Position numbers and translations under genes: made by a program. DNA of 64,000 bases from Bacilli bacterium (GTDB lineage Bacteria; Bacillota_I; Bacilli_A; ML615J-28; CAG-698): NCBI GenBank assembly GCA_050953065.1, contig JBMNLZ010000002.1:192001-256000 (forward strand). The letters are read 5' to 3'. Numbering within the stretch: position 1 is the first letter of the stretch; each line of letters opens with the position of its first letter. The notes beneath the pieces are model-generated. The model was not told where the DNA came from, did not search any database, and worked only from the letters and a program-made list of their open reading frames with translations. Positions 34,901 to 61,132 of this stretch are shown in pieces.

Positions 34901-36183
34901 ATTGTAAAGGCACAGGTTTTTATGAAATAAAACTTACCGGAATAAAAGAAGATGGAACTGTCATTAATTTCCCAGAAAAATCTATAAAAATATATAATAG
35001 TGCTGATAAGACCGAATTAATGCAAAAGTTTGCACTTGAAGAAAATCCATTGTTAGCAAAAAATGCATCCAATTCTAATACTGTGTATGTATATTTGACA
35101 AAAAATACAGGGTATTATATTGATATAGAATTGTATGATAAAGATTTTGTATCATTATATCTCGACATAACTTTGGCGAATATTCAAGAAATAGATATTT
35201 TTGATTTGAATAATTTAACTTCGAATGAAAATATAAATATAACAAATGAAAGTGATAAAAAGGGAGATTATGTAAAAAAAATAAAAATAAAACAAGCATG
35301 TCAAGTAAAGTTAGAAGTAGAATATGAGGGGTATCAGCATCAAAATGTAGTCATCATTCTAATGAAAATAGAATATGATAGTTTGTCAAATGAACAAACA
35401 ATAAATTTAAAATATATTGATTATCTTAATAAAGATAAAACTACGAATAATGCGAATAGCGGTGTGATTTTAGATTTAGAACCTGGAAATTATTATATTG
35501 GATACTTTAATTTGAGTAACGGCCAAATTACTATTATGAAACTAAAAAGAATTGTTAGCAATAATATTACTAATATCAATTGTGGACTACTCCCTGATCG
35601 TAGCATCCATTTCCCATATGGAAGTCAATTGTCAATTTTAGAAAAAGATGTGCCTCCTTTATACAAAAGTTATCAAGGGACTAATATTACCGTAGGTTTT
35701 ACAAGGTTAATATACTTGGACTTGGATTATGCACAATCTGATTCTAGATTAGATTATTATTGGTATTCAAGTGACAATGCTAAAGCTACTATAACAGCAT
35801 ATGCTACTATTCTTGGAAGAACTCCTGGTAATGTTACAATAATGGCGGTTTATAAAGAAGATCCATCTATCATATTTGTGAAGGAATTTACTATACAGCC
35901 AGATTTAGATAACACACCCCTAAATATAGAAATTTATCAAACCCATTCACTAAGTGAAGATGGTCCTTATCAAATAACCTTAACAGCTCAAAATAGTCCA
36001 TATGTATTTTTGCAATATTATAATTGGAGCGTTTATGTTCCGTGCCAAGAAAATGATTTTAGTGCATGGCTTGATGCTTGGGGGAATCTTGCTACTACAG
36101 GAACAGGACTTCTTTATATAACTGGTGGATATATAATTAATCCAAGGATTAGTATTACAATTTATCTGACCTTAATAGAATGA
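31981..36183 (+). CDS. Large secreted protein: lipase-like (PGAP1/DUF676-type) alpha/beta-hydrolase, BspA LRR, conserved Ig-like C-terminal scaffold
   Basis: Signal peptide ending LKA; SHGLQG, LIGHSRGG (GxSxG), VGTPYNGT; LRR units IESFAFTNN; C-terminal about 430 aa homologous to 46768-50442. Confidence 0.8.
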   Translation: MIKKIFVKGLIILMMLILINFNVELKAAGNEFVGQSAGITEQDIKNAIKITDKNINYETNITFISHGLQGSAAHWSNIMEMSSALNSYEFQYNHNSIIECLRRRCNADVYKIEDFNTSYVIEDNQIVGVTPHSFKLRKLIVDSVEKIYKENEYINSITNMNNHIVIIYQSSNETNDKISDFAYKELEFAINKITYDVIQLMETKVKINLIGHSRGGILNMKYAIEYPYNVDGLFSVGTPYNGTNLASIYNLLSSAFPSNSGDPFGLTDLINSPGGSEIISINPENNHLKTAWLNMHEEYSPNINFHAIAGETGITHLIKELIDIQNMAGGNATLSEVVNILFSALIALEQTYISNGITPNTDESSPNRKPYNSQNLNLEEEPLVSTAAFISSALLCFGLSIENEDYLALSELLINCRYSFAEGELFLRSDLFSHTYSQQADGFEFGLNDNIILVNRYKKIFTGNNSTYEMKAANSVGVVHNSETKDLEIINYILLNINISRNDNKVNTCFINKYNDSCLAFMGVVINSTENNVHISLPNIITYDLYGDGTYMIHNVKGISRFFSKSLNNDKVTQISFGNKISIIEQGAFNSFDNVIAFNVDATSEYFCSNSGSLYTKNKKSLIKYCNGSSFTTAFILPNETTNIESFAFTNNNFLTSVDLNNVTMVGEKCFYNASNLASIVGNQLCYAYDFAFHYTEWLDNISNTESTNLGKVLIKYIDNSQPKKTKLVVNQYSCVYSYAFLNSENLVEIIFNTEELLVNRYAFVDNISLERVMLLVEQVFVICPYSFVNNNNQFTCYYLENVYINGFANFNIYRNRGSCVPISRYDLNCRSDVNDFNKNLGKGMSLIYQLDVDCAKSYKITSSSTSAFEMKIYDQNMNLINDIVATISNDELSGITTGTITNYLSPGKYFLKIKYNDSSKSGIIKTNYKATWPVKTYNVHYSDVENKNNILNHLHKISKPISNIYKNELIYANCKGTGFYEIKLTGIKEDGTVINFPEKSIKIYNSADKTELMQKFALEENPLLAKNASNSNTVYVYLTKNTGYYIDIELYDKDFVSLYLDITLANIQEIDIFDLNNLTSNENINITNESDKKGDYVKKIKIKQACQVKLEVEYEGYQHQNVVIILMKIEYDSLSNEQTINLKYIDYLNKDKTTNNANSGVILDLEPGNYYIGYFNLSNGQITIMKLKRIVSNNITNINCGLLPDRSIHFPYGSQLSILEKDVPPLYKSYQGTNITVGFTRLIYLDLDYAQSDSRLDYYWYSSDNAKATITAYATILGRTPGNVTIMAVYKEDPSIIFVKEFTIQPDLDNTPLNIEIYQTHSLSEDGPYQITLTAQNSPYVFLQYYNWSVYVPCQENDFSAWLDAWGNLATTGTGLLYITGGYIINPRISITIYLTLIE

Positions 36184-40425: not shown

Positions 40426-41448
40426 ATGATTAAAAAATTAGTAGCATTACAAGAACAAGCAAAAAGTGAAATTATGGCAGTTAAAACAATGCATCATTTA
40501 AATGAAGTTAAAGCATTGTATTTAGGAAAGAAAAGTCCTTTGCAGGAAATCTTACAACAGATGAAAGATTTAACTGTAGAAGAAAAAAAGAAAATGGGGA
40601 TTGCGATTAATGCTTTTAAACAAGCAGTTGAAGAAGCTGTTTTAGTAAAAAGAGATTTAATTGAAAAAGATCTAATTAATGAAAGATTAGAAAAAGAAGC
40701 AATTGATATTAGTTTGCCTGGTGTTAAGTTTAAGAAAGCAAATTATCATCCATTAGAATTAGTAACAAGAGAAATTGAAGAAATCTTTATTGGAATGGGC
40801 TATAACATTGCAGTAGGACCTGAGGTAGAGTTAGATTTATATAATTTTGAAATGCTTAATTTACCAGCAGGTCATCCAGCAAGAGAAATGCAAGATTCAT
40901 TCTATATTAATCCAACAACTCTACTTAGAACTCATACTTCTCCTGTTCAAGCAAGAACAATGCTTGAAAATCAAAATAAACCAATTCAAATAATTTGTCC
41001 GGGGAAAGTTTATAGACGTGATGATGATGATGCAACGCATTCTCATCAGTTTATGCAAGTTGAAGGTTTAGTATTAGGTAGTGATATTTCTTTAGCTGAT
41101 TTAAAAGGAACATTAGAATATCTGCTTAAGAAATTGTTTGGTGGAGATAGAACAATTAGATTTAGACCATCATACTTTCCTTTTACAGAACCTAGTGTAG
41201 AAGTAGATGTTAGTTGTTTTAAATGTAATGGTAAAGGATGTGCTCTTTGCAAGCAAAATGGTTGGATTGAAATATTAGGAGCTGGTATGGTTCACCCTAA
41301 TGTTTTAACAATGGCAGGATATGATCCTGAAAAATTCCAAGGATTTGCTTTTGGAATTGGAATTGAAAGAGTAACAATGCTTAAATATGGAATTGATGAC
41401 ATTAGACATTTTTATACTAATGACATTAGATTCTTAAGGCAGTTTTAG
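40426..41448 (+). CDS. pheS: Phenylalanine--tRNA ligase alpha subunit
   Basis: [36 protein letters not shown]. Confidence 0.98.
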
Positions 41449-41459
41449 GAGGTAGCATC

Positions 41460-43847
41460 ATGAAAGTAAAATTAGAATGGTTAAATGAATTAGTAGATTT
41501 ATCTGATTTATCATTACAAGAAATAATAGATACAATTTCACTTAATTGTATAGAAATTGAAACAGTGTTACCATTATCTAGTGCGACTAATTTAGTAACT
41601 GGATATGTTTTAGAAAAAGAAGCTCATCCTAATTCTGATCACTTATCAGTATGTAAAGTAGATGTTGGATGTAACACACTACAAATTGTTTGTGGTGCTC
41701 CAAATGTAGAAAAGGGTCAAACAGTAATTGTTGCTTTGGTTGGAGCAGTTTTACCAGGAGATTTTAAAATTACAAAAGCTAAAATCAGAGGTGTAGAATC
41801 AAGTGGAATGATTTGTTCGCTTCAAGAATTAGGATTTGAAAAGAAATATATTCAAGAAAAATATCAAGAAGGAATTTATTATTTTACTGAAGAAGTTGAA
41901 ATTGGGATTAATGCTTTAGAAGCATTAAAGATGGATGATGTAGTAATTGAATTAGGTCTTACTCCAAATAGGAGTGATTTATTAAGTATGATTGGAGTTG
42001 CATATGATGTAAGTGCAGCTTTTAATAGACCAAGGAAAGAATTAAAATATGATTTAAAAAAATCAAATATTACTGAGACAGTAGATGTTACTATTAAAAC
42101 AAAAGATTGTAGCGCATATTATGCCATTATAGCAAAAGATTTAGTAATTAAAGATTCACCTCAATGGTTAGTATCAAGACTAGTTGCTTTTGGAGCAAGA
42201 CCAATTAATAATGTTGTTGATATTACAAACTATATTCTAGCTCTTTTTGGTCAACCTTTACATGCTTTTGATTATCAAAAGTTAGGTAATAAAATTGTAG
42301 TAAGAAACGCATTAAAGAAAGAAAAAATTACAACACTTGATTTAGAAGAAAGAGTTTTAGAAGAAGATGATATTTTAATTACTGATGGTAAAAAAGGCGT
42401 TGCTCTAGGTGGAGTAATGGGTGGAATAGACACTGCAATTTCTAATGATACTAAAGATATTGTAATTGAAGCGGCTGTCTTTAATCCTGCTTCTATTAGA
42501 AAAACATCAACTAGATTAGATTTAAGAAGTGAATCTTCAATTAGATTTGAAAAAGGTGTTGACGTTAATAGAACTCTAGAAGCTTTAAATTATACTTGTT
42601 ATTTACTTGAAACTTTAGCTGATGCTAAGATTTCAAAAGAATATAAAGTAGCTGGAATTACAGAAGTAGTGGATCTACCAATCTCAATTACTCTTGATTA
42701 TATTAATAAATATTTAGGACTTGATTTAACTATTAAAGAAGTAATTAATATCTTTAAAGCATTAGAATTTAAAACTGCTTTAGAGTCAAGTAATGAATTA
42801 GTAGTTTATGTTCCAAACAGAAGAAGTGATATTACAATTAAAGCTGATTTAGTAGAAGAGATTGGAAGATTTTATGGTTATGAAAAACTACCTAATACTT
42901 TACCTAAATCAAACCTTACTTCAACTCTAACTCCAAAACAAAAAAATACTAGAAAATTAAAAGATATTCTAGTAGGTTTAGGATTAAATGAAGTAATTAA
43001 TTATTCGCTTGTTTCAAAAGAAAAGAATCAAATGTTTACATTAAACAATAAAGAAAAGATTAAAGAAATATCTTTAGTAATGCCATTAAGTGAAGAACAT
43101 AAATATTTAAGACTTAATCTACTTTCTGGTTTAATTGAAAATGTAAAATATAACTTTGCTCGTGATTTAAAAGATTTAGCTTTATTTGAAGTAGGTAAAA
43201 CTTATTATGAAAAGGATGGCAAAACTTTTGAAGATACGTATTTAGGAATTGCAATTTCTAATTCATTCTTTTCAAATGCTTGGCAAAAAACAAATATTCA
43301 AGCTGACTTTTATTTACTAAAAGGTATTCTAGAACAAATCCTATCAAAATTTGATTTAAACTTTGACCTAAGACCTTTAGAAAAAGTGATAGCAGAAATG
43401 CATCCAAAAAGAAGTGCTAGAATTGTAGTAAATGGAAAACCAATTGGCTTCTTAGGAGCACTTCATCCTGAGTTTGCTTTAAAGAATGATTTAAATAATG
43501 TTTATGTTTTAGAAATGGATTTAGAAGATTTTATTAATACTAAAGAAGAAATAAATCTTTATAAACCAATTACTAAAATTCCAAGCATGGAACGAGATAT
43601 TGCAGTAGTAGTTAATAAAAATGTTTTAGCAGGAGATTTAATTAAATCAATTAAACAAGAAGCTAAAGATTTAATTAGTAGTATTGATATTTTTGACGTT
43701 TATGAAATAAACGAAAAAGAAAAATCAATTGCGATTAAAATGATTTTTACATCTTTTGAAACCCTAACTGATGATATTGTAAACAAAAAGATTGCTAGAA
43801 TATTAAAGAAGTTAAATGAAGAATATAATGCAGTCTTAAGAAGTTAA
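41460..43847 (+). CDS. pheT: Phenylalanine--tRNA ligase beta subunit
   Basis: IVCGAPN, TPNRSD, NNVVDITNY, RFEKGVD, DLVEEIGRFYGY. Confidence 0.98.
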   Translation: MKVKLEWLNELVDLSDLSLQEIIDTISLNCIEIETVLPLSSATNLVTGYVLEKEAHPNSDHLSVCKVDVGCNTLQIVCGAPNVEKGQTVIVALVGAVLPGDFKITKAKIRGVESSGMICSLQELGFEKKYIQEKYQEGIYYFTEEVEIGINALEALKMDDVVIELGLTPNRSDLLSMIGVAYDVSAAFNRPRKELKYDLKKSNITETVDVTIKTKDCSAYYAIIAKDLVIKDSPQWLVSRLVAFGARPINNVVDITNYILALFGQPLHAFDYQKLGNKIVVRNALKKEKITTLDLEERVLEEDDILITDGKKGVALGGVMGGIDTAISNDTKDIVIEAAVFNPASIRKTSTRLDLRSESSIRFEKGVDVNRTLEALNYTCYLLETLADAKISKEYKVAGITEVVDLPISITLDYINKYLGLDLTIKEVINIFKALEFKTALESSNELVVYVPNRRSDITIKADLVEEIGRFYGYEKLPNTLPKSNLTSTLTPKQKNTRKLKDILVGLGLNEVINYSLVSKEKNQMFTLNNKEKIKEISLVMPLSEEHKYLRLNLLSGLIENVKYNFARDLKDLALFEVGKTYYEKDGKTFEDTYLGIAISNSFFSNAWQKTNIQADFYLLKGILEQILSKFDLNFDLRPLEKVIAEMHPKRSARIVVNGKPIGFLGALHPEFALKNDLNNVYVLEMDLEDFINTKEEINLYKPITKIPSMERDIAVVVNKNVLAGDLIKSIKQEAKDLISSIDIFDVYEINEKEKSIAIKMIFTSFETLTDDIVNKKIARILKKLNEEYNAVLRS

Positions 43848-43988
43848 AAAATGTTTGATTTAAAAAAACTTTGTTTTATGTTGAACTTATAAAATATGAT
43901 TTAACTGAATTTGATTATATAATTTATTCTTTGTAGGATTGTAAATGATGTGAGACATAACATAATAATTAAAAAAGAGGTAAGGAAA

Positions 43989-44741
43989 ATGAAGAAAGCG
44001 AGTACTAAGTTATTACGAGTATTAATTGTTTGTTTTTTATTGTTGTTGATGTCTGGGTGTCGATATCGATATGATCCTTATAAGGACAAAGTAAATGTAG
44101 TTGTTGAAACGGATTATTTTTATGTTCAGTTAATAGTAAAAAATGTAAAAGAACCAAGGGCTTGTATATTAGAATTAACTGATTTAGGGAAAGAACAAGA
44201 AATTTTAGTTATTCCAGAATATGTAGAAGGGCTTCCTGTAAGGACTATTGGTAGACAAGAATTTAGTACATTTGGATGGAGAATTATAAGTGATAATTTA
44301 AAGAAAGTTTATGTTCCTATAACTGTAACCTCCATTTTAAGTACTGCATTTTTAGATTGCACTAATTTAGAAGAACTTGTGATGTTATCAGTGCCTATTA
44401 ATTATAATATGCCTGATCTTTGGTCTACTGGTGGACAAGCAACAATTATTCTTTCTAATCCATTGCAAGAAAATAGACTTATTGCAGTCCTAAAACCAGA
44501 AAATATAACATTACCAGTAAATCTAGTTTTTTACTATAACTATTCTGATGCACCAAATTCTGGATATTATTGGTTTGATTATATAACTGGTAGTAATTTA
44601 TATGTTTTACCAAACAATCCCGAAAGAGAAGGATATACTTTTAAAGGATGGTATATAGATGAAGAATGTAGTATAGAGTGGGATAAAGTATTACCAACAT
44701 CAGAAACTGAAATACTTGAATTATATGCTTTATGGGAATAA
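43989..44741 (+). CDS. Lipoprotein with BspA LRR-like segment and InlB B-repeat (copy 1)
   Basis: Lipobox MSGC; IPEYVEGLPVRTIG, AFLDCTNL, PEREGYTFKGWY...LYALW. Confidence 0.85.
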   Translation: MKKASTKLLRVLIVCFLLLLMSGCRYRYDPYKDKVNVVVETDYFYVQLIVKNVKEPRACILELTDLGKEQEILVIPEYVEGLPVRTIGRQEFSTFGWRIISDNLKKVYVPITVTSILSTAFLDCTNLEELVMLSVPINYNMPDLWSTGGQATIILSNPLQENRLIAVLKPENITLPVNLVFYYNYSDAPNSGYYWFDYITGSNLYVLPNNPEREGYTFKGWYIDEECSIEWDKVLPTSETEILELYALWE

Positions 44742-45488
44742 AAAAATGAGTGTAAAATTATTTAAAATTTTTGTTATGATTTGTTTATTGTTGTTGATGT
44801 CTGGGTGTCGATATCGATATGATCCTTATAAGGACAAAGTAAATGTAGTTGTTGAAACGGATTATTTTTATGTTCAGTTAATAGTAAAAAATGTAAAAGA
44901 ACCAAGGGCTTGTATATTAGAATTAACTGATTTAGGGAAAGAACAAGAAATTTTAGTTATTCCAGAATATGTAGAAGGGCTTCCTGTAAGGACTATTGGT
45001 AGACAAGAATTTAGTACATTTGGATGGAGAATTATAAGTGATAATTTAAAGAAAGTTTATGTTCCTATAACTGTAACCTCCATTTTAAGTACTGCATTTT
45101 TAGATTGCACTAATTTAGAAGAACTTGTTGAATTATCAGTGCCTATTAATTATGATATTCCTGATCTTTGGTCTACTGGTGGACAAGCAACAATTATTTT
45201 TTCTAATCCATTGATGGAAAATAAAATTATTGCTCGTCAAAGATCTGGTGGAATACAAATACCAGTAAATTTAGTTTTTTACTATAACTATACTGATGCA
45301 CCAAATTCAGGATATTATTGGTTTGATTGTATAACTGGTAGTAATTTATATGTTTTACCAAACAACCCTGAAAGAGAAGGATATACTTTTAAAGGATGGT
45401 ATATAGATGAAGAATGTAGTATAGAGTGGGATGAAGTATTACCAACATCTGAGACTGAAATACTTGAATTATATGCTTTATGGGAATA
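44036..45488 (+). repeat. Tandem gene duplication, period 748 bp
   Basis: 44036-44380 appears identical to 44784-45128 by eye; differences cluster downstream. Confidence 0.93.
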
Positions 45489-45489
45489 G
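44746..45489 (+). CDS. Lipoprotein with BspA LRR-like segment and InlB B-repeat (copy 2)
   Basis: Tandem paralog at 748-bp period with the same motifs. Confidence 0.85.
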   Translation: MSVKLFKIFVMICLLLLMSGCRYRYDPYKDKVNVVVETDYFYVQLIVKNVKEPRACILELTDLGKEQEILVIPEYVEGLPVRTIGRQEFSTFGWRIISDNLKKVYVPITVTSILSTAFLDCTNLEELVELSVPINYDIPDLWSTGGQATIIFSNPLMENKIIARQRSGGIQIPVNLVFYYNYTDAPNSGYYWFDCITGSNLYVLPNNPEREGYTFKGWYIDEECSIEWDEVLPTSETEILELYALWE

Positions 45490-45875
45490 AAGGAAAGATG
45501 TAGTAGAGAAAGCATTTGATAATATGAAGAATGATTTAGACTTTAGAAGATTAAGAATTCATAATGAAAACACGTTAAGAGGTAAAATGTTTATAGTGTT
45601 TATTGCTTTAATATTAAAAACATATTTATATAATATGGTAATACAAAGAGGAATAGTAAAAGAATATTCAATTAATGAAGTACTAAAAGAAGTACAAAAA
45701 ATATCTAGAATTGAATTTGATAAAAACAACTCATTGTTAACGGAGATATCAAGCGAGCAAAGAAAATTATTTAGATTATTAGAAATAACAGAACCAAAAG
45801 AGAAAGAATGTACCCTAATGTAGGGGGTACATTCTTTATTGTTTATACGTGTATAATTCTTATAGGGAATTTAGG
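45487..45875 (+). mobile_element. IS1634-family transposase 3' remnant with probable right end
   Basis: RRKDVVEKAFDNMKNDLDFRRLRIHNENTLRGKMFIVFIALIL; GGGAATTTAGG at 45865-45875 resembles a terminal IR. Confidence 0.75.
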
Positions 45876-45987
45876 TTGATAATACGATTATACATTAATT
45901 ATGGCAAATAACAATACTATTTTGAACGGTATATGTTGACTGGGATATTTTTAAATGTTAAAATATTGGTGTAGGGGGTAAATAAAA

Positions 45988-46755
45988 ATGCGAAAATTAT
46001 TATTTTTTTTGATAACATTTATTTTGGGATTAAGTCTTGTAGGGTGCGACGACGAAATAAATGCGATTGAGAAAGTGAAAGTCCAAGCAAGACAAACTTA
46101 TTTGAACACAATCATTAAACCTCGGTATCCCGATGCTACAATAGCCGATGTGTCATTCAGACCTTTTCTTGGGGTTTATAGCAATAGCTTGGTAGCCATT
46201 TTCTATGGTGGACAGTATCACGGTAGTCAAATAGCAGTTGAGGTAACTGAGGAAATTGAGAATATAATTTTTGCATATTCCAGCGGATATCCAATCCTTG
46301 TTTGGAACGACGGGAAAATAAGTTCGCTAACGGCGGCATACGAGCAAGGGCTTTTAACAAAAGAAAATTTGACAACCATACACAATCTTTATTGCGATAT
46401 AGATGATGGAGTGGAGGTCGAAATGGAAATACAGTCAAGGCTAACTTATTTGAACACAATCGTTAAACCTCGGTATCCCGATGCTACAATAGCCGATGTG
46501 TCATTCAGACCGTTTCTTGGGGTTTATAACAACAGCTTGGTAGCCGTTTTTTATGGCGGGCAGTATCACGGTCCTCACATAGAACGTGAGGTAACTGAGG
46601 AAATTGAGAATATAATTTTTGCATATTCTAGCGGATATCCAATCCTTGTTTGGAACGACGGGGAAATAAGTTCGCTAACGGCGGCATACGAGCAAGGGCT
46701 TTTAACAAAAGAAAATTTGACAACTATACACAATCTTTATATAGGTAAAAAGTAA
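45988..46755 (+). CDS. Lipoprotein of two near-identical domains (116-aa period); putative partner/inhibitor of the downstream protease
   Basis: Lipobox LVGC; repeat 46095-46392 vs 46443-46740. Confidence 0.85.
   Translation: MRKLLFFLITFILGLSLVGCDDEINAIEKVKVQARQTYLNTIIKPRYPDATIADVSFRPFLGVYSNSLVAIFYGGQYHGSQIAVEVTEEIENIIFAYSSGYPILVWNDGKISSLTAAYEQGLLTKENLTTIHNLYCDIDDGVEVEMEIQSRLTYLNTIVKPRYPDATIADVSFRPFLGVYNNSLVAVFYGGQYHGPHIEREVTEEIENIIFAYSSGYPILVWNDGEISSLTAAYEQGLLTKENLTTIHNLYIGKK
46095..46740 (+). repeat. Intragenic direct repeat, period 348 bp
   Basis: AACTTATTTGAACACAATC...CACAATCTTTAT occurs twice. Confidence 0.95.
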
Positions 46756-46767
46756 AAGGAGAAAATC

Positions 46768-49700
46768 ATGTTTAATACTAACAAAGTAAAGAAAGTATCG
46801 CGATTTAGTGCATTATCAATTATAATATCAATCCTAATATTGGGATTAATAGTATCATTTACTTTCATGAACTGCAATACTATCTACGTATTTGCTGCTG
46901 AAGGCGAACAAACCGTGTCGATGACAAAAGTTTACAGCGACGTGTCAATTGAAGAGGATTTTGATGGCAGTAGCATTATTGTTATTATTGACAATAGTCT
47001 AAGTGGGATAAACAAGCGCCATGATGTAAATTTTTTTGAAGGAATTGAAATAGTCGAAATCGAAGACTTAACCGTAAAAACAGAGAGTGCAAGAAGTCTC
47101 GTTGACAAGAAAACTTTCGAGCAGGTCTTGAAGATAAAGTTACCGCAAGATTGTAAAGAAAGTGTCATACGCGGTATTAAGCAATTAGAAAGCATAAACG
47201 GAATTAAGTATGCTGGACCCAATAGGTATATTGAAGTGGAGAGGAATCCTAATGACCCGTTTTTTACCCATGTTTCCGGCGGTGAGGCGAATCAATGGGG
47301 GCTTAATAGAATTCAAGCAAATTTAGCTTGGGATTTGACAACGGGCAATAATAACGTGCGTGTCGGGATAATCGATACGGGAATTGGTGATATTGTCGGC
47401 GGACAAGCTAATCATCCTGACTTAAATGCAAACTTAGTTGCAGGTGGAGATTTTGTTAACATGAACGGAACTACGCCGGGGCCGTTAAGAGCAGATACTG
47501 ATGGACACGGAACTCACGTTGCTGGAATTGTAGGAGGGGTTGGCAATAATAGTGTGGGAATCTCTGGCGTTAATTGGAACGTTTCATTAGTGCCGATGCA
47601 AGTCGCAACAGGTGATACAATCGACGCCGCGGCTTGCGTAAGAGCAATAAATTTTGCAACAAACACTTGGAATAACGAAAATAGAATTAGTATTTTGAGT
47701 ATGAGTATCGGTCGATATACTGAGTGGCCAGAAATAGAAACTGCGATTAGAGCGTACCCTGGACTTTTTGTTTGCTCCACAGGAAACAGAAAACAGAACA
47801 ATGATATCACTCACCATTATCCCTCTTTTTATGGTTCCGCTTTGCACACAAATCCGCTTACAAATATGATTTCAGTAGGCAGAAGTGACATTAACGATGA
47901 GCGTCCTACAGATTTGAATATCAATGCAAATTGGGGAGCGCAAACGATTACTCTTTTTGCACCAGGTCAAAACATCATTAGTACATACCCCGTTAGCGTG
48001 ACATCAAATTGGACTCCTGGATATCACAGAACATCAGGCAGCTCAATGGCAGCGCCTATGGTTTCGGGGGTAGCGGCTTTATTGTTATCAGTTAATGCAA
48101 ATCTTACAACTACTCAATTAAGAGCGGCAATCGTCAACAACGTGGATGTGTTGGACACTTTTGAAAACGACCCAACAAACGGACGTCAATGCGTAACAGG
48201 TGGACGGCTTAATGCATACAAGGCACTTAGTAGCGTAATTTTTACAACAAGTAACGTTAGTAATGGCATATCAATAAACGGTTTTATAAACGGATACACT
48301 ATGCCAAACAACACAGAATTAGTTTTACCAGATAGCTTTGCACCATTAGGAGATGAAGAACAACAACCTGTTGTTGCAATTGGGAATAATGCTTTTGCTA
48401 ATCAAACAAGCCTAACTGAAATCTCTATTCCTAGCAGTATTACAAGTATTGGAGCAAATGCCTTTGCTGGTTGTACTTCATTAAACAGTGTAATAAGAGA
48501 ATTTAATTATGATATTACTACCACTAATTGCTATTACTTAATAAGAGAAAATTTAAATAATAATTTTCTTGAAGTGAACGGAGAAACTGTCTCAAATACA
48601 AATGATATAGTTCCTTTGTACTTAAGTGCAGGCAATCATAGTATTAAAGTACAAGGGTCAAATATTTCAAGTGTTATGAGTGCTCCAACTTTAGAGAAAG
48701 TAGAACAGATTTTTCTAAACTCAAATCAAGATGTTAAAAGTAGCATTGAAAGTGGAAAAAATATTTTTCATTTTAATAATTTTGGTGGAAGGTTTGTTCG
48801 ATTTACTATAGAAGCAACTAGTAGTAATCCTAACAATCCAACTATTAGTTATTTAGAAAATGCAATAATAGTTAGAGACTCAAATGGTGTGATAAAAAAA
48901 TTTGAAAATTCTATTTTTTCTATAGAAGCAAGAAATGTTACTGATTCAAATACAATAACAGTTTATCTTCCTACAACTAAAACTTATTATGTAGAAGTAA
49001 ACTTTTCAACTACGGATATTTCCGAATTAACATTGACTGCTAGATTATTAGATAATGCATCTCAATTTAATTTATTTAATTTAAATGAAAATGCTAATTC
49101 TAACATTAATTTGTTTAACATTGGCACATCAAATGGTGATGAAATTAAGGTAATTAATATATTGCAATCAGGACAATTTAAATTTGTAGTTAATTGTGAT
49201 AATCGAACAACTAGTTCAAAATTTGTAATTATTAAAGAAAAGTTAGTTGATAATCAAATAGTTAGACAGGTTATAAATGTGTGGAATATGGATATGGATG
49301 AAAATGGGAATGGTGAAATAGTTGATTTAGAACCTGCTAAATATTATATGGGATATTTTAATACACCGGTAGGGGTAGATGTTACTATTCTAATCAATAG
49401 ACTTGTTACACAAAGCGGAAGTGATGTATTGGTAACCGATCCAGATTATATGACACCTTGTGGAAGTCAAATCAATATAATTGAAGCAGATAAAAACATA
49501 AAAAGTTATCGTCAAACATTTATAACAGAGGGATTTACAAGATTAGTATATTTTGATATAGATTATGCTCCTTCTATTTCTAGATTAGATTATTATTGGT
49601 ATTCAAGCAATTCAAGTGTAGCAACAGTTACCCCATATGGAACTGTTTTAGCATTGCCAGTAACAACAGCTACTACAGTAAAAATAATGGCTGTATTTAA

Positions 49701-50442
49701 AACAGATTGTTCAAAAGTTTTCATTAAGGAATTTACTATTTTAGATGATATAGGATTGTCATGTGAATATGATAATAGAGAAGAAATGGTAAATGATTTT
49801 CTAGATGATTATACAGCATTTTACAATGCTGCTAACAATACAAGTTTATCTAGAGTAACCTTACTTATTCCAGGAGATTCTGGCTATGATGCTAGTACGG
49901 CATTAGTGGCTAGATTAGATAATCAAAATGCTACTTTAGAATTATTTTATAACAACCTTGATTTATACAATAAGTGGATTTGGATTGTTGACTATACAAT
50001 GGAAATACGCCCTTCAAGTCAAACTGAGTTTCAAAAATATATAAACAATACAGCAACTGGAACAAGTACAATTGTAAAATATGAAATATGGGCTTTCTTA
50101 AGTAAAAGAGTAAAAACAACGTGGCCACAAACTAGTGACTATACAATAGATGAAAACGCAAATGGTTTTTGGAGTTTAATAAATGGTGAATCTATAACTA
50201 TAGATATTAATGTTACAATTCCAGCTGGTCAAACAGTTATGATTCCTTTAATAGATGCAGAAGTACCTATTAATATATTGCAATATTATTTGTGGTCTAC
50301 AGAAAATCCAGAATCCGTAACATTTGCAGATTGGGGAAAAGTATATATTAGTTCTTCGGCAATTGGACAAACGGTTGTACTTAATGGAAGTTATATTCTT
50401 AACCCTAGGGTAGTAGTTAAGATTACTGTACAAGTAGAATAA
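46768..50442 (+). CDS. Large secreted S8 subtilase with short BspA LRR and conserved Ig-like C-terminal scaffold
   Basis: Signal peptide ending VFA; triad VGIIDTG, GHGTHVAG, SGSSMAAPMVSG; GGRLNA; IGNNAFANQTSL; C-terminus homologous to 31981-36183. Confidence 0.92.
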   Translation: MFNTNKVKKVSRFSALSIIISILILGLIVSFTFMNCNTIYVFAAEGEQTVSMTKVYSDVSIEEDFDGSSIIVIIDNSLSGINKRHDVNFFEGIEIVEIEDLTVKTESARSLVDKKTFEQVLKIKLPQDCKESVIRGIKQLESINGIKYAGPNRYIEVERNPNDPFFTHVSGGEANQWGLNRIQANLAWDLTTGNNNVRVGIIDTGIGDIVGGQANHPDLNANLVAGGDFVNMNGTTPGPLRADTDGHGTHVAGIVGGVGNNSVGISGVNWNVSLVPMQVATGDTIDAAACVRAINFATNTWNNENRISILSMSIGRYTEWPEIETAIRAYPGLFVCSTGNRKQNNDITHHYPSFYGSALHTNPLTNMISVGRSDINDERPTDLNINANWGAQTITLFAPGQNIISTYPVSVTSNWTPGYHRTSGSSMAAPMVSGVAALLLSVNANLTTTQLRAAIVNNVDVLDTFENDPTNGRQCVTGGRLNAYKALSSVIFTTSNVSNGISINGFINGYTMPNNTELVLPDSFAPLGDEEQQPVVAIGNNAFANQTSLTEISIPSSITSIGANAFAGCTSLNSVIREFNYDITTTNCYYLIRENLNNNFLEVNGETVSNTNDIVPLYLSAGNHSIKVQGSNISSVMSAPTLEKVEQIFLNSNQDVKSSIESGKNIFHFNNFGGRFVRFTIEATSSNPNNPTISYLENAIIVRDSNGVIKKFENSIFSIEARNVTDSNTITVYLPTTKTYYVEVNFSTTDISELTLTARLLDNASQFNLFNLNENANSNINLFNIGTSNGDEIKVINILQSGQFKFVVNCDNRTTSSKFVIIKEKLVDNQIVRQVINVWNMDMDENGNGEIVDLEPAKYYMGYFNTPVGVDVTILINRLVTQSGSDVLVTDPDYMTPCGSQINIIEADKNIKSYRQTFITEGFTRLVYFDIDYAPSISRLDYYWYSSNSSVATVTPYGTVLALPVTTATTVKIMAVFKTDCSKVFIKEFTILDDIGLSCEYDNREEMVNDFLDDYTAFYNAANNTSLSRVTLLIPGDSGYDASTALVARLDNQNATLELFYNNLDLYNKWIWIVDYTMEIRPSSQTEFQKYINNTATGTSTIVKYEIWAFLSKRVKTTWPQTSDYTIDENANGFWSLINGESITIDINVTIPAGQTVMIPLIDAEVPINILQYYLWSTENPESVTFADWGKVYISSSAIGQTVVLNGSYILNPRVVVKITVQVE

Positions 50443-50505
50443 AAGTTTTTTAAGACTTTGTAAAGAAAGTGGTGGTTTTTAGGCCTTAAACTTCTCAGTA
50501 ATCAA

Positions 50506-50664: not shown

Positions 50665-51528
50665 TTAGCGCCTTTTATTTAATTCATCTATTACTTCATC
50701 AACTAAATGTTTGGGAGTACTAGCTCCACTAGTTACTCCAATTGATTTTATATTTGAAAAATCAATTTTATCTAAATCTTTATAATTATCAATTAATTCA
50801 CATCTTGCTTTAGTATTATTAAGACAAACATTTTTTAATTCTTTAGTATTATTACTCATCTTATCTCCAACAATGATAATTAAATCATAAAGCATCCCTG
50901 CTTCAATTACAGCTTTTTGACGTAATTTAGTAGCCGAACAAACTTCTTCTGAATAAATAATATGAGGAAACTTATTCTTTAGTTTTTGATATACTTTTAT
51001 TACATCAAAAGTTGAAAGAGTAGTTTGGTTTGTAAAGAAGATTTTTTGATAATTTAAATTTAAATTATCTAAATTATCTTCTAAAGTAATTAAAGAGATG
51101 TTTTTCTTATTAGAGATGATTCCTTCTGTTTCAGGATGGTTTTTAACTCCAAGATATAAGATGTGATAACCTTCGTTTATTTTTTCTTTTATTAAATTAG
51201 CAGTCTTTAAAACATTAGGACAAGTTGTATCAATATAGTCTAAGTTTTTTTCTTTTAAGATTTCATAAACTCTATCACTTACTCCATGTGCAGTTAGGAT
51301 TACAGTACCTTCATTAATTTCTTTAAGTAAGTTTTCTCTAGTATCACCATGTAATATAATTACACCTTTTTCTTTAAAACTATTGATAACATGAGAATTA
51401 TGAACTAAATCACCAAGCATATAAATAGGTTTTTTAAGATTAGGATTACTTAATGCTTTATTTAAAAGGTTTATGGCATTTACTACTCCAAAACAAAAGC
51501 CTTGAGGTTTTATTTCAAAAATTTTCAT
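50665..51528 (-). CDS. ispH: 4-hydroxy-3-methylbut-2-enyl diphosphate reductase
   Basis: GFCFGV, LVHN, TAHGV, DTTCP, HPE, NQTT, CSAT, SGASTP. Confidence 0.96.
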   Translation of the reverse strand: MKIFEIKPQGFCFGVVNAINLLNKALSNPNLKKPIYMLGDLVHNSHVINSFKEKGVIILHGDTRENLLKEINEGTVILTAHGVSDRVYEILKEKNLDYIDTTCPNVLKTANLIKEKINEGYHILYLGVKNHPETEGIISNKKNISLITLEDNLDNLNLNYQKIFFTNQTTLSTFDVIKVYQKLKNKFPHIIYSEEVCSATKLRQKAVIEAGMLYDLIIIVGDKMSNNTKELKNVCLNNTKARCELIDNYKDLDKIDFSNIKSIGVTSGASTPKHLVDEVIDELNKRR

Positions 51529-51645
51529 AAAAAGTCTCCTTTTAAAAGATTTTAACATTACTTTAAATTAAAGTAAATAAATAAAATTAATAGTTTATTT
51601 TTTTAAAATGTTTTGGTATAATTTTTTATGGAAGAGGTATTTTAA

Positions 51646-57694: not shown

Positions 57695-60600
57695 ATGAAA
57701 AGAATATTATTGTTTTTTGTTTTATTAGTAGTAGTAGGACTTGCTGGTTGTATGCAAACTAGTAATGTTACTTTAGAATTTCAAAGTAAGGCGTTTACTC
57801 TTGAAGTAGGTGAAACTGTTCAATTGTTACCAACAATTAAAGGAGCAGAAAGTTATACGGTAGTATACAATTCACTAGATCAAACAATTGTATCTGTTAA
57901 TACTGAAGGACTTTTAACAGCTATTAGTGAAGGTACAACTAAAGTTGTAGCGCGTTTAACGGGTGTTGAAAATATTAGGGTAGATGTTGATGTGACAGTT
58001 ATAAAAGGAACTGGGACTGACACACCAACTCCACCTAGTGAAAACAAAACTTTAAGTTTAGTTGTTGCTAATGGCGATAACAACATGATTCAAGAAGAAA
58101 CAATTCAATTAAGATTATTGAGTGGTGTAAACACTTATGCTGGTCAAATTATTTGGATGTCTGGCAATCCAAGTGTTGCAACAGTATCTCCCACTGGTCT
58201 TGTAACAGCAGTTGCAGCAGGGACTGCAACAATTACAGCGATTGCTGGTAGTGAATTTAAAACAATTCAAATTAATGTTGAAGCTAAAGAACAAATAATA
58301 GTTCCTAATATTGAATCTATAACAATTAGTGGTAGCAGTTTTGTAACTGTTGAACAACAAACTACATTAACTGTAACAGATAATACAGGTAATGTTGCTA
58401 GAGTTATTTGGGTTGCAGATACTCCACATGTAGCAACAATTAATGAAATGGGTGTTGTAACAGGCGTTTCAACTGGTATTGCACAATTTACAGCTAAGGC
58501 TCAAGGTAGCCAAAATATAACAGCTAGTTATATGATGCTTGTAAAAGAAGCAGACAGTAGTGGTGGTGGCAGCAATATAACTTCAATTGAAGTTACAGGT
58601 GTTGCTGAAATATTAACTGGAAATAAAATGAAATTAAATGTAACATATACTCCTTCAACAGAAGCAGCAACTTTTACTTATACATCAACTAATGAATCTG
58701 TAGCAACAGTTGATGCTGCTGGTTGGGTAACAGGAGTTGGTGGTGGTACTGTTCAAATAGTTGTAACTTTAAATGAAGATACTTCTAAGAGTGCAACATA
58801 TACAGTTACAGTAATCCCATTACCAGAAGGAATTACAATTAGTGGTGCTAATAACGTAAGTTATGGACAAAATATATTATTACAAGCTGCGGCTTATCCT
58901 ATTGGAGCAAGTAGTTTAGTTACTTGGACAAGTAGTAATACTGCAATTGCAACAGTTGATGCAAATGGTAGAGTAACAGGTGTTGCAACTGGTTCTGTAA
59001 CAATTACAGCAACTTCAATCGTATCAAGCACAATTAAAGCAACTCATCAAGTTACAGTTAGTGATGCGATGAATATAACATTAAATCCAACAAGTTTATC
59101 AATTGCTGCAGGTGCAAGTCAAACAATTACTGCAACTGTAATTGCAGCATCACTAACAGATAAATCAGTTGTTTGGAGTAGTAGTAATACTAGTGTTGCA
59201 ACAGTAGATGCAAATGGTAAAGTAACTGGTATTGCTCAAGGTAGCGCAACAATTATCGCTAAACTTAATGCTGATAATAGTATTCAAGCTCAAGCAAGTG
59301 TTACTGTTTCTCAAGCAGCAACTCCTTCAATTTCACTTTCAGATTCAAGTATATCAATAATTACTGGTACAACAAAAACTTTAACAGCAACAGTAAGTAA
59401 TACTAGTAATACAAGTGTTACTTGGAGTAGTAGTAATACTGGTGTTGCAACAGTTTCTAATGGTGTTGTAACAGGCGTTGCAGCAGGTAGTGCAACAATT
59501 ACAGCAACTTCAGTTGCTGATACATCAGTAAAAGCAACATGCGCTGTAACAGTAACAGCAGCTCCAGCAGGAACTCTAACAGTAACGCAAAGCCCAACTG
59601 GAACAATTGCAGTTGGAGCAAGTGGTTATCAAATATATGTAGCCGATTCAAGTGGAACAGCTGTTTCAAGACTTGAATGTACATTTACATCAAGTAACTC
59701 AAGTGTTGCAACAGTTTCAGCATATGGAACAATTTCAGCTTTAGCAAATGGCACTGCAACAATTACAGTAACTCATTCAACAAAAGGAACAGGCTCAATT
59801 GTTTTAACAATTGGATCTGGTGGTGGGACAACTCCTCCAGTTAATCCTCCAGCAGGAAGCCTAACAGTAACACAAAGCCCAACTGGAACAATTGCAGTTG
59901 GAGCAAGTGGTTATCAATTATATATTTCAGATTCAAACGGTAGTATCTCAAGAACTGAATGTACATTTACATCAAGTAATAGTAGTGTTGCAACAGTTTC
60001 TTCATACGGAACAATTTCAGCTTTAGCAGCTGGTACTGCAACAATTACAGTATCTCACCCAACAAAAGGAACAGGCTCAATTACTTTAACAGTTGGCGGT
60101 GGTGGCACAACACCTCCTCCATCATCAGGAGCTGATTATCCTCAACATATCATTGTAGATAAAGCAAGTACTTATACTGGTACATTTAGTAATGTTCAAT
60201 TATCAGGTAGTAAATTAGTGTTAAGCAGTGGTGCAACTTCAGGAACTTATACTTCTAAACAATTTTCTAGTGCAATATCGTTTACTAAAATGGTTGGTTC
60301 GTGGTCTGCAACTTACCCTGCTACAAGTGCTACAGTTGAAGTTCAATTTAGATTAAAGATTGGTTCAACTTGGACAAGTTATTTATCTTATAGACAATGG
60401 GCTAAAGGAAAAACAAATTCAGCTGTTGATACATCAGTTAGTGGTGCTAAGATTAGTTGTGATGAAATCTATACAACAGGATCTGCTGCAACAGGCTTCC
60501 AATATACAGTTACACTTAGAAGAGCATCAGCAACTTCTTCAAGCCCTCAATTATCACTGGTTGCTGCAACATTATATAACTCAGGAAGAAACACAGCTTC

Positions 60601-61132
60601 TATTTATGATGTTACACAATATCCTACTTCAAAAGTTTATTCAGTAGAACGTCTATATCAATATAGTGTATCAGGAATTGGTGGTATTATATGTAGTCCT
60701 ACAACTTCAACAATGTTATTGAAATGGAAAGGTGCTACAGCATTTGGTGGATATACTTATCCTCATCAATACATTGCAGGTATTGCATATGATTCAGGTT
60801 CAAAAATTTATGGTAACTGGACATATAACTGTGCAACAATTGGATCTTATGGTTATAATAGTTATGTTAGAATGATGTATTCTTATCAAGAATTAGTAAG
60901 ACATTTAGCATATGTTGGACCAGTTGGTGTAAGTGTACAAGGTACAGTAGCAGGTAGTCAAGGAAGTTATTATACAAACGGACACTTAATGGTTGTTAGA
61001 GGTTATAGTAGAAGTGGTACTTCTGTAACATTTAATATTAACGACCCAGCTAAGAATGTAGCTTATACTATGACATCAACTCAACTTATGAATTGTTGGT
61101 CTGCTAAGAAAGTTGCATATATTGTAGAATAA
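57695..61132 (+). CDS. Surface lipoprotein with multiple Big_2 Ig-like repeats and a C-terminal C39-like (papain-fold) peptidase
   Basis: Lipobox LAGC; about nine W.SSN..VATV...G.VTGV-type repeats; catalytic ICSPTT, GHLMVVRGY, INDPA. Confidence 0.85.
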   Translation: MKRILLFFVLLVVVGLAGCMQTSNVTLEFQSKAFTLEVGETVQLLPTIKGAESYTVVYNSLDQTIVSVNTEGLLTAISEGTTKVVARLTGVENIRVDVDVTVIKGTGTDTPTPPSENKTLSLVVANGDNNMIQEETIQLRLLSGVNTYAGQIIWMSGNPSVATVSPTGLVTAVAAGTATITAIAGSEFKTIQINVEAKEQIIVPNIESITISGSSFVTVEQQTTLTVTDNTGNVARVIWVADTPHVATINEMGVVTGVSTGIAQFTAKAQGSQNITASYMMLVKEADSSGGGSNITSIEVTGVAEILTGNKMKLNVTYTPSTEAATFTYTSTNESVATVDAAGWVTGVGGGTVQIVVTLNEDTSKSATYTVTVIPLPEGITISGANNVSYGQNILLQAAAYPIGASSLVTWTSSNTAIATVDANGRVTGVATGSVTITATSIVSSTIKATHQVTVSDAMNITLNPTSLSIAAGASQTITATVIAASLTDKSVVWSSSNTSVATVDANGKVTGIAQGSATIIAKLNADNSIQAQASVTVSQAATPSISLSDSSISIITGTTKTLTATVSNTSNTSVTWSSSNTGVATVSNGVVTGVAAGSATITATSVADTSVKATCAVTVTAAPAGTLTVTQSPTGTIAVGASGYQIYVADSSGTAVSRLECTFTSSNSSVATVSAYGTISALANGTATITVTHSTKGTGSIVLTIGSGGGTTPPVNPPAGSLTVTQSPTGTIAVGASGYQLYISDSNGSISRTECTFTSSNSSVATVSSYGTISALAAGTATITVSHPTKGTGSITLTVGGGGTTPPPSSGADYPQHIIVDKASTYTGTFSNVQLSGSKLVLSSGATSGTYTSKQFSSAISFTKMVGSWSATYPATSATVEVQFRLKIGSTWTSYLSYRQWAKGKTNSAVDTSVSGAKISCDEIYTTGSAATGFQYTVTLRRASATSSSPQLSLVAATLYNSGRNTASIYDVTQYPTSKVYSVERLYQYSVSGIGGIICSPTTSTMLLKWKGATAFGGYTYPHQYIAGIAYDSGSKIYGNWTYNCATIGSYGYNSYVRMMYSYQELVRHLAYVGPVGVSVQGTVAGSQGSYYTNGHLMVVRGYSRSGTSVTFNINDPAKNVAYTMTSTQLMNCWSAKKVAYIVE
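59564..60120 (+). repeat. Intragenic duplication of a variant Ig-like module, period 285 bp
   Basis: CCAGCAGGA...CAAAGCCCAACTGGAACAATTGCAGTTGGAGCAAGTGGTTATCAA starts at 59564 and 59849. Confidence 0.9.

Follow-up and report, generated by a model that had tools for sequence, protein, structure and literature searches.

We analyzed a 64,000-nucleotide stretch of DNA (hereafter "the window"; G000:C2:192001-256000) from the genome of an uncultured Bacilli bacterium, and focused on a subtilase (peptidase family S8) gene and the lipoprotein gene that immediately precedes it. The genome (G000) is a 1.55-Mb metagenome-assembled genome of three contigs with 29.5% G+C. This DNA is present in anaerobic-digester, bioreactor and sludge metagenomes; among the matches listed, 20 metagenome entries from 17 studies hold part of it, and five of these 20 hold at least half of the sampled words. 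The two genes are located in a block between pheS-pheT (40426-43847), which forms the left flank, and the convergent ispH gene (50665-51558), which forms the right flank, and all genes between pheT and ispH are on the plus strand. We conclude that approximately 2.4 kb of this block (about 45880 to 48300-48430) is probably a horizontally acquired cassette that is joined in frame to a leucine-rich repeat (LRR) and scaffold tail native to the genus. The observations that bear on this reading are the mosaic composition of the locus, the boundaries of its homology, discordant trees, contiguity in independent assemblies and an insertion sequence (IS) remnant at the left edge.

The block begins with two tandem copies of a gene for a protein that we call lipoprotein A (43950-44741 and 44716-45489). 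Each copy encodes an SGC lipobox and one Listeria-Bacteroides repeat (Pfam Flg_new at 8.5e-10 and 6.2e-10). The tandem is a direct repeat with a period of 748 nucleotides and 94-95% identity, and its composition is native (G+C at third codon positions, or GC3, of 0.06-0.27). A 3' remnant of an IS1634-family element follows (45486-45877, plus strand), recognized by a partial match to NCBIfam NF033559, and then a short region (45880-45987) that includes a promoter-like site, identified by its match to the consensus, and a ribosome-binding site. This region leads into the gene for a second lipoprotein of 255 residues, lipoprotein B (45988-46755), which has an LVGC lipobox as read from the translation and a foreign composition. 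Twelve nucleotides separate its stop codon from the start of the subtilase gene on the same strand.

The subtilase gene (46768-50442) has 1,224 codons, and its frame is open throughout. Its N-terminal part, the S8 head (46768-48312), consists of a signal or anchor peptide, an N-terminal pro-like domain and a subtilase catalytic domain, and is likewise foreign in composition. The catalytic domain matches Pfam Peptidase_S8 (PF00082) over residues 195-459 at 5.8e-42, with 144.4 bits compared to a cut-off of 21.8. Residues D203 (in DTG), H247 (HGTH), N340 and S426 (SSMAAP) are invariant in a 10-row alignment (A1) and fall in the Asp-His-Ser order with an additional Asn, which we take to be the catalytic triad and the oxyanion Asn of subtilases. 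The head is followed by about two BspA-type LRRs and a linker (48313-48687), where the composition becomes native, and the repeats match Pfam LRR_5 (PF13306) over residues 535-619 at 7.6e-10 (39.2 bits, cut-off 27.7). The remaining portion of the protein, approximately 580 C-terminal residues (48688-50442), is a scaffold that has native composition and no Pfam name and that belongs to a multigene family of this taxonomic order. Head and tail meet at the start of the LRR region in an interval (48298-48427) that is delimited by a GC3 change point and by the edge of homology to a congener, and that we interpret as the site of an in-frame crossover.

The original prediction described a stretch from 45988 to about 48330 with many CG dinucleotides and G/C-ending codons, and placed the switch near the start of the LRR region. 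Both features were recovered when composition was measured. In 300-nucleotide windows, G+C is 0.37-0.47 across 46000-48400 compared to 0.22-0.31 in the flanks, except that it drops to 0.31-0.32 at 46600-47049, where the intergenic gap lies. As a control for amino acid composition, the expected GC3 was calculated for each residue from the codon usage of G000 itself, in steps of 50 codons. Lipoprotein B has a GC3 of 0.31-0.42, compared to 0.11-0.12 expected (z 4.3-7.0), and codons 1-500 of the subtilase gene have a GC3 of 0.24-0.42, compared to 0.11-0.13 expected (z 2.8-6.3). From codon 501 onward, GC3 is 0.06-0.19 (z -1.2 to 1.7). GC3 is therefore not uniform once amino acids are controlled. 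Likewise, CpG counts per 150 nucleotides fall from 3-10 in the GC-rich part to 0-3 after the break, and the last dense CpG is at 48291.

A one-change-point likelihood scan placed the break at codon 516 (nucleotide 48313), with a support interval of 2 log-likelihood (lnL) units that covers 48298-48349, a gain of 38.9, and a GC3 of 0.325 to the left and 0.116 to the right. When all 416 ATG-started open reading frames (ORFs) of at least 400 codons in the genome were scanned, the subtilase gene ranked first for intragenic GC3 change (next value 15.8, median 2.0, 95th percentile 5.3). The change point falls between the end of the Pfam S8 match at residue 459 and the start of the LRR_5 match at residue 535. 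The compositional break is thereby confirmed as real and sharp.

Several other regions of the genome also depart from its usual composition. Five ORFs (C3:422730-426734, C2:34727-38095, C2:73654-77043, C2:27800-31087 and C3:84427-88074) have a smaller GC3 rise in their first 74-199 codons (0.17-0.26 compared to 0.06-0.09; lnL gain 7.7-12.7). These may be further head exchanges that are older or shorter, or they may reflect a codon effect at 5' ends. Within the window, a gene at 57695-61132 encodes a lipoprotein-like protein of 1,145 residues that is rich in Ala, Gly, Thr and Ser and has eight Big_2 domains plus a C-terminal Peptidase_C39_2-like domain; it sits in a stretch of 0.35-0.37 G+C, which may reflect this residue make-up or a foreign source. 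Outside the window, C1:1-20700 reaches 67% G+C in 2.3-kb windows and has the most deviant tetranucleotide content of the genome; either a foreign island or a fault in binning or assembly could account for it.

High G+C in a protease domain might also arise in a native, vertically inherited gene, either from the amino acid make-up of the S8 fold or from codon selection for expression. First and second codon positions are indeed G+C-rich in the catalytic domain (0.40-0.60 and 0.40-0.56, respectively), as expected of a Gly/Ala-rich fold. However, the third-position excess remains after amino acid conditioning and extends to the unrelated lipoprotein and to the pro-like domain. Furthermore, S8 heads cut from other genomes of the order are all native in GC3 (15 of 15, 0.09-0.21) and have 7.6-26 CpG per kb, compared to 0.325 and 47 per kb for the window head. 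The congener comparison and the tree test described below, in which the head was not found in G001 and its placement among the heads of the order was rejected, point in the same direction. We consider this explanation highly improbable.

Another concern is a chimeric assembly, in which an LRR repeat common to two organisms led to the joining of their contigs. The genome is a metagenome bin with 1.19% contamination, it includes the GC-rich contig end noted above, and paralogous LRR repeats are common elsewhere in it. We aligned metagenome contigs from four runs to the locus and found that the interval 48298-48427 is bridged, with zero or one difference, in three of them (X1, X2 and X5), which come from three studies. 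The X1 contig (12,281 nucleotides) covers 46695-50500 and continues for 8.5 kb into native downstream genes with no differences, the X2 contig (4,259 nucleotides) also crosses the junction with none, and the X5 contig (525 nucleotides) covers 48140-48664 with one. Run X1 may be the source sample of the genome. On the left side, repeats break the assemblies into short contigs, and a 297-nucleotide contig (45848-46144), present in X1 and X2 with no differences, crosses the IS end with 30 nucleotides on the IS side. Since native sequence flanks the foreign part on both sides, a chimera would need two joins, and it would have to preserve a reading frame of 1,224 codons. The junction is not an assembly artefact, and we assign an exceedingly small probability to the chimera.

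The S8 head and the scaffold have different relatives. Among the 106 genomes of the order, 23 (G000 included) match the head at E <= 1e-40, and the best identities in the 105 other genomes are 46% (G078) and, over a partial match, 48% (G082). No paralog of the head was found in G000, where it is unique. Outside the order, searches of a collection of 5.8 billion proteins returned heads of 63% (P0007), 59% (P0010), 58% (P0008) and 56% (P0009) identity, with P0008-P0012 spanning 54-59%. The best match among species-representative genomes is 62%, in a bin labeled "uncultured Clostridia" (L018), and the next is 41%. The PheT protein of L018 is 36% identical to that of G000, compared to 47-51% within the order.

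In a 51-row tree of S8 heads, the window head falls in a starred eight-row clade with P0009 (its sister and an S8-plus-LRR_5 protein), P0010, P0025, P0011, P0008 and P0007/L018, and the other members of this clade have no match to the window scaffold. The eight-row clade is nested in a larger one of 32 rows, which contains none of the 15 heads from the order. Forcing the window head to group with these 15 heads costs 106.7 lnL units and is rejected by the approximately unbiased (AU) test (p-AU 2.7e-07), whereas the control constraint on the 15 heads alone costs 10.2 units and is not rejected (p 0.185). The scaffold, in contrast, is sister to that of the congener G001 among sequences of the order, with a Shimodaira-Hasegawa-like approximate likelihood ratio test (SH-aLRT) value of 96. 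Searches of the L018 and L019 genomes gave no match to the scaffold (0 of 2), which is no proof of absence. As anticipated in the original prediction, head and scaffold trees are thus incongruent: the scaffold groups with the congener and the head with outsiders that lack the scaffold. These comparisons support an origin of the head in a bacterium outside the order.

In L018, the 62% head (L018:5014-8892, in CAMBZZ010000012.1) is joined to a very dissimilar tail whose C-terminal part is Hint-like. The GC3 of its lipoprotein (0.24) and head (0.19) is below the 0.28-0.43 found elsewhere on the contig, and the cassette therefore looks imported in L018 too.

The relevant comparison within the genus is G001, which is 86% complete and has a PheT that is 84% identical to that of G000. 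On its 6.5-kb contig C149, the stop codon of a lipoprotein A gene directly abuts a 1,381-codon gene whose product has a lipase-like alpha/beta-hydrolase head (GHSRGG), approximately six LRR_5 repeats and the scaffold. The GC3 of this gene is flat and native (0.04-0.27). In blastn alignments, homology between this DNA and the window is confined to 43969-45510 (73%) and 48427-50419 (72%), and tblastx extends the right part from 48370. Identity between the two proteins does not exceed 0.33 through residue 540, rises to 0.57 from residue 541 and reaches 0.70-0.83 at residues 571-630. The LRR and linker (residues 535-640) are 70% identical, the scaffold is 59% identical in amino acids and 72% in nucleotides over its whole length, and lipoprotein A matches the single G001 lipoprotein at 73% of nucleotides and 63% of amino acids. 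The S8 head and lipoprotein B have no match in this 86%-complete genome.

From these limits it follows that the window differs by exactly the IS remnant and the GC-rich cassette, where G001 has a lipase head and extra LRRs. The closest relatives of the flanking parts, which are those of G001, thus enclose a different head of native composition. The homology edge lies within about 100 nucleotides of the composition edge and just to the right of the change point, which fits the earlier proposal of recombination at the LRR. A relative of lipoprotein A (32% identical) is also found upstream of another lipase-head paralog in G000 (C2:286780 and 287458). Because lipoprotein A recurs with lipase heads in this way, the two lipoprotein A genes of the window look like the leftover of such a pair. 

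Scaffold paralogs in G000 include the gene at 31945-36183 of the window. It is part of a paralogous pair (30908-36183) in which the gene for a 358-residue lipoprotein (LTGC, no Pfam match) overlaps the start of a 1,412-residue gene with a lipase-like head, LRR_5 repeats and a scaffold of the same family (36-39% identical). The composition of this pair is native throughout.

We also examined the pheT-ispH site in relatives. Twenty stretches downstream of pheT were fetched, two were dropped as too short (108 and 385 nucleotides), and the 18 remaining family genomes were counted. In 10 of the 18, ispH follows pheT within about 65-165 nucleotides, so that the gap is empty. It follows after 1.3-5.5 kb in four others and was not reached within 9 kb in the last four. 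In G001, pheT and ispH are separated by 835 nucleotides with a small membrane-protein ORF and no block. Given a gap that is empty in most relatives and blockless in G001, the entire 6.6-kb block is a newcomer at this site. One of the 10 empty gaps belongs to G086, a congener of G009, and G009 carries an S8-scaffold gene in the gap. With the head of that gene 35-39% and its scaffold 26-31% identical to those of the window, and with the G086 gap empty, the G009 insertion is independent. Across the family loci L139, L140, L142, L143 and L103, the convergent gap is occupied by unrelated inserts of 1.3-5.5 kb in several genera and by the S8-scaffold gene in G009, and it looks like a recurrent insertion site.

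The history of the site raises the question of the order of events. A whole foreign lipoprotein-subtilase pair might have entered first and then had its 3' part overwritten by gene conversion from a native LRR-scaffold paralog, or the mosaic might have formed in a close relative, with the finished 6.6-kb block later inserted between pheT and ispH. The newcomer status of the block agrees with such schemes, and the many LRR and scaffold paralogs in the genome are possible conversion donors. However, the scaffold is closest to that of G001 (59%) rather than to a G000 paralog (at most 39% over the N-terminal part, and 56% over one 149-residue domain). Moreover, with native lipoprotein A genes upstream, the locus has the arrangement seen in G001 (lipoprotein A, then head, LRR and scaffold), for which the simplest account is that the middle of a native pair was replaced. 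Even the reversed order still needs a foreign cassette and a crossover at the LRR, and it differs only in sequence of events and place. We regard this alternative as unlikely overall, and we continue with the replacement of the head of a native gene by a foreign cassette.

Lipoprotein B has two copies of a domain of about 115 residues that combines a helix with a sheet and carries the conserved loop FYGGQYHG, and the internal repeat in its gene has a period of 348 nucleotides and 92% identity. No paralog was found in G000. Its closest relatives are metagenome proteins of 84% (P0126) and 58% identity and a protein of about 50% in L018, compared to at most 39% within the order. The L018 protein is a lipoprotein with the same domain, and its gene is located directly upstream of the 62% head. 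In addition, P0008, which has a 58% head, and the lipoprotein P0137 share the longest-contig figure of 33742, so they may lie on one contig. The original prediction treated lipoprotein B and the head as one cassette, and this view is supported: they share a composition, both are closest to outsiders, and L018 has a comparable pair.

Of the 105 other genomes in the order, 39 have distant relatives of the domain (22-39% identical). When coordinates were compared by eye, lipoprotein-B-like domains were no more than about 2 kb away from S8 genes at eight places in seven genomes (G058, G075, G078, G100 twice, G009, G068 and G025). A metagenome scan with an alignment of the lipoprotein returned three loci of 39-56% identity, none with an S8 gene. 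In G058 (L122/L128, C4:36921-38654), a lipoprotein-B-like domain (35%) and an S8 head (41%) are encoded in a single 814-codon frame, which is possibly a natural fusion of the predicted inhibitor with its protease.

An AlphaFold (AF2) model of lipoprotein B has a mean predicted local distance difference test (pLDDT) score of 88.7 and consists of two domains, each a helix plus an antiparallel sheet. We then modeled S8 residues 45-500 in complex with lipoprotein B residues 21-255. The median score was 0.66 (runs of 0.66, 0.62 and 0.72), compared to 0.00 for the best of three controls. Of 157 solved complexes, 116 attain the mark used for this score, as do 2 of 215 mismatched pairs; these counts are only a rough guide here because our own alignments were used. 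The runs share at least 97% of their contacts, and the partner pLDDT is at least 80. In the model, lipoprotein residues 194-201, a variable stretch right after the conserved GGQYHG motif of the family, contact protease residues D203, H247, 313-318, 337-342 and 422-427, which presumably correspond to the catalytic triad and the substrate-binding strands. The modeled complex supports a role for lipoprotein B as a cognate S8 inhibitor that would plug the active site in a manner resembling the standard mechanism. If lipoprotein B is the own inhibitor of the protease, this would explain why lipoprotein and head probably travel together.

Structural searches with the lipoprotein B model gave hints only. 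A Foldseek search of the PDB returned no match at E <= 0.001. VIA-align run in wide mode had a best Z of 5.1 and included about a dozen inhibitors of the cystatin superfamily. In the ESM Atlas, the best feature score was 0.78, and a "PepSY-like / beta-lactamase-inhibitor-like" cluster scored 0.77, both under the 0.9 bar. A borderline match to a phage base-plate barrel (PF20955, 27.6 bits compared to a cut-off of 27) was not used.

At the left edge, the IS1634 remnant retains only about the last 100 transposase codons, followed by a terminator-like hairpin (45803-45837) and the end of the element. Its match to NF033559 (E 3.2e-20) covers model positions 379-482 of 483 and scores 72.6 bits, below the cut-off of 100; the sequence does not encode a full-length DDE transposase. 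A 1,648-nucleotide X5 contig matches only 45486-45867 and has a depth above that of the surrounding contigs, and loose contig ends at 45875-45880 in all four runs mark the IS end. No second copy of the remnant was found in the G000 genome. The original prediction had the foreign stretch begin at 45988, the start codon of lipoprotein B. Composition agrees with foreign DNA from that point, but the stretch probably begins about 110 nucleotides earlier, near 45880, where the IS remnant ends.

The intervening region carries the promoter-like site TTGACT-17-TAAAAT with a TG (45936-45964; 10 of 12 matches), a consensus match of a kind that occurs six times in the region compared to 8.1 expected, and GGGGG located 9 nucleotides before the ATG of lipoprotein B as a ribosome-binding site. 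A further X5 contig matches only the 107-nucleotide stretch 45876-45982, with a few differences and unrelated sequence on both sides, and this stretch may itself be repeated or mobile. We found no flanking direct repeats for the 6.6-kb block or for the cassette, and DNA searches of plasmid and phage collections gave no match.

A number of observations weigh against the acquisition of a foreign cassette as we describe it, or narrow what can be claimed. First, the raw tetranucleotide distance of the cassette to the genome mean is only moderately unusual: it ranks 86th of 1,334 windows (about the 94th percentile), and the scaffold part ranks 321st. Second, no close donor emerged, since the best head among 5.8 billion proteins is only 63% identical and no short fragment is closer. 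The closest head in a species-representative genome, that of L018, is low in GC3 and does not match the composition of a donor, and the 84% relative of lipoprotein B lies on a contig of 2,558 nucleotides and was not returned by the metagenome scan. Third, the trees came from quick searches, and the group used in the AU test was named after the tree had been seen. Fourth, the G001 gene pair is located at another site, on C149 beside a PadR gene, and no syntenic empty site for this contig was found in G000. The case for the replacement of a lipase head consequently depends on the nearest homolog, from a single congener that is 86% complete, and not on a positional ortholog. The scaffold, called resident in the original prediction, is native to the lineage as the sister of the G001 scaffold, but it is not demonstrably native to a site that is empty in 10 of 18 relatives. 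Fifth, this scaffold family also bears S8 heads in other members of the order (for example, in G009, G004, G021, G037 and G038), and the replaced head could therefore have been another S8. Sixth, of the 105 other genomes in the order, 11 contain IS1634-like genes of up to 57% identity, which makes the link between the IS and the cassette only circumstantial. Finally, the cystatin-type fold matches are weak (Z 3.2-4.3) and fall below the Z of 7-8 reached by chance models.

The same protein family provides other examples in which heads and tails have different histories. G038 and G037, which belong to different genera (pheT 70% identical in nucleotides), share a 2,387-nucleotide block of 92.3% identity. 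This block starts 61 nucleotides into the gene for the upstream lipoprotein, a protein of 197-200 residues, and extends to about residue 615 of the S8 gene. Past that point, protein identity is only 20-57%, and the sequences that flank the block are not related. Both the exchanged unit and the breakpoint zone match those proposed for the window. Likewise, P0012 and P0014 have heads that are 82-100% identical and tails that are 17-47% identical. The reverse applies to P0014/L106 and P0022/L107, whose heads are 0-42% and tails mostly 90-100% identical (one 40-column window is 75%). Upstream lipoprotein and head therefore seem to have been exchanged as a unit elsewhere in this family, and swapping seems to be common.

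We propose the following origin for the mosaic gene. A cassette made up of its own upstream region, the lipoprotein B gene and the 5' 1.5 kb of a subtilase gene would have come from a bacterium outside the order with a higher third-position G+C. A crossover in the first BspA-type LRR would then have joined it in frame to the native LRR-plus-scaffold tail. The first LRR lacks the Cys of the resident repeats, as does that of P0009. The incoming DNA most likely took the place of a lipase-type head and the majority of its LRRs, because the homologous tail in G001 carries a lipase head and lipoprotein A is still located upstream here. The left join may have come from the IS1634 remnant that abuts the cassette. 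The gene would encode a secreted protease held on an LRR/scaffold carrier, and a membrane-anchored inhibitor would shield the surface of the producing cell.

More tentatively, this locus might represent a wider phenomenon. An upstream lipoprotein gene plus an enzyme head could constitute a mobile cassette that moves between genera and orders of uncultured anaerobes by crossovers in LRR or linker sequences onto interchangeable scaffolds. Under this broader proposal, which we consider somewhat less likely than not, lipoprotein B would found a new family of tandem, cystatin-like subtilase inhibitors that insert a loop, and the system would be both a non-toxin counterpart of toxin/immunity swapping and a Bacillota-type analogue of the KLIKK/potempin pairs discussed below.

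Mosaic genes formed by intragenic recombination with foreign DNA are already known, for example among penicillin-binding proteins and surface antigens. What is added here is the idea of enzyme-plus-inhibitor cassettes on interchangeable carriers. As in the known cases, a foreign block lies within one frame, composition and similarity jump together, and the crossover falls in a conserved stretch. Unlike those cases, in which a diverged allele is exchanged, an entire catalytic module appears to have been replaced by another enzyme class, a neighboring gene was carried along, and the crossover lies in an LRR repeat that would act as a universal adaptor. BspA-type LRR surface proteins share with this protein repeats that match LRR_5 above the cut-off. 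However, only about two repeats are present here, and they act as a linker that connects an enzyme head to a large scaffold at the C terminus.

In polymorphic toxin systems such as CdiA-CT/CdiI and Rhs, a variable end is exchanged together with its immunity gene. The likeness to the window consists of a conserved carrier, an exchangeable active end and a small adjacent gene, predicted here to be neutralizing, that moves along with it. The polarity is reversed in our case, since the N-terminal head varies and the upstream gene travels. The heads are also ordinary hydrolases (S8 and alpha/beta hydrolase), and there is no evidence of inter-bacterial killing.

A further parallel is offered by the KLIKK peptidases and potempins of Tannerella forsythia. 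According to published accounts, each secreted peptidase gene is located immediately downstream of a small lipoprotein gene, and the peptidases have differing catalytic heads and a nearly identical C-terminal part (PMC9890683, PMC4404884). Potempins are described there as inhibiting "their" peptidase by a loop wedged into the active-site cleft and as protecting the surface of their own cell, with PotC as a standard-mechanism subtilase inhibitor (PMC9890683). The window resembles this arrangement in the lipoprotein gene 12 nucleotides upstream of the S8 gene, in the modeled loop in the cleft and in the differing heads (S8 and lipase-like) on a common LRR-scaffold tail. Unlike potempins, which from the same source are beta-barrels of 98-132 residues, either oligonucleotide/oligosaccharide-binding (OB) or eight-stranded up-and-down (PMC9890683), lipoprotein B has two tandem helix-plus-sheet domains. 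No potempin occurs among its fold matches, and neither a sequence match nor a clear fold match to one was found. Likewise, the KLIKK peptidases have a C-terminal domain for type IX secretion, whereas the tail here consists of LRRs and an unnamed scaffold. The host is also an uncultured low-G+C lineage from digesters rather than T. forsythia, and inhibition is only predicted. Since the folds differ, the likeness to potempins is one of logic and not of homology.

The locus provides an unusually clean natural case of domain-level transfer, in which composition, homology edges, trees and assemblies agree on a junction of 130 nucleotides. It also reveals the unit that was exchanged, namely a catalytic head together with the small gene ahead of it, and the similar but more recent exchange found between two other genera suggests a general rule and not a chance event. 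If the lipoprotein does act as an inhibitor, a new protease would be safe only with its own antidote, which would explain the joint exchange, and a new family of subtilase inhibitors would be at hand. For annotation, the long surface-protein genes of these lineages are best read as mosaics whose parts have been separately derived.

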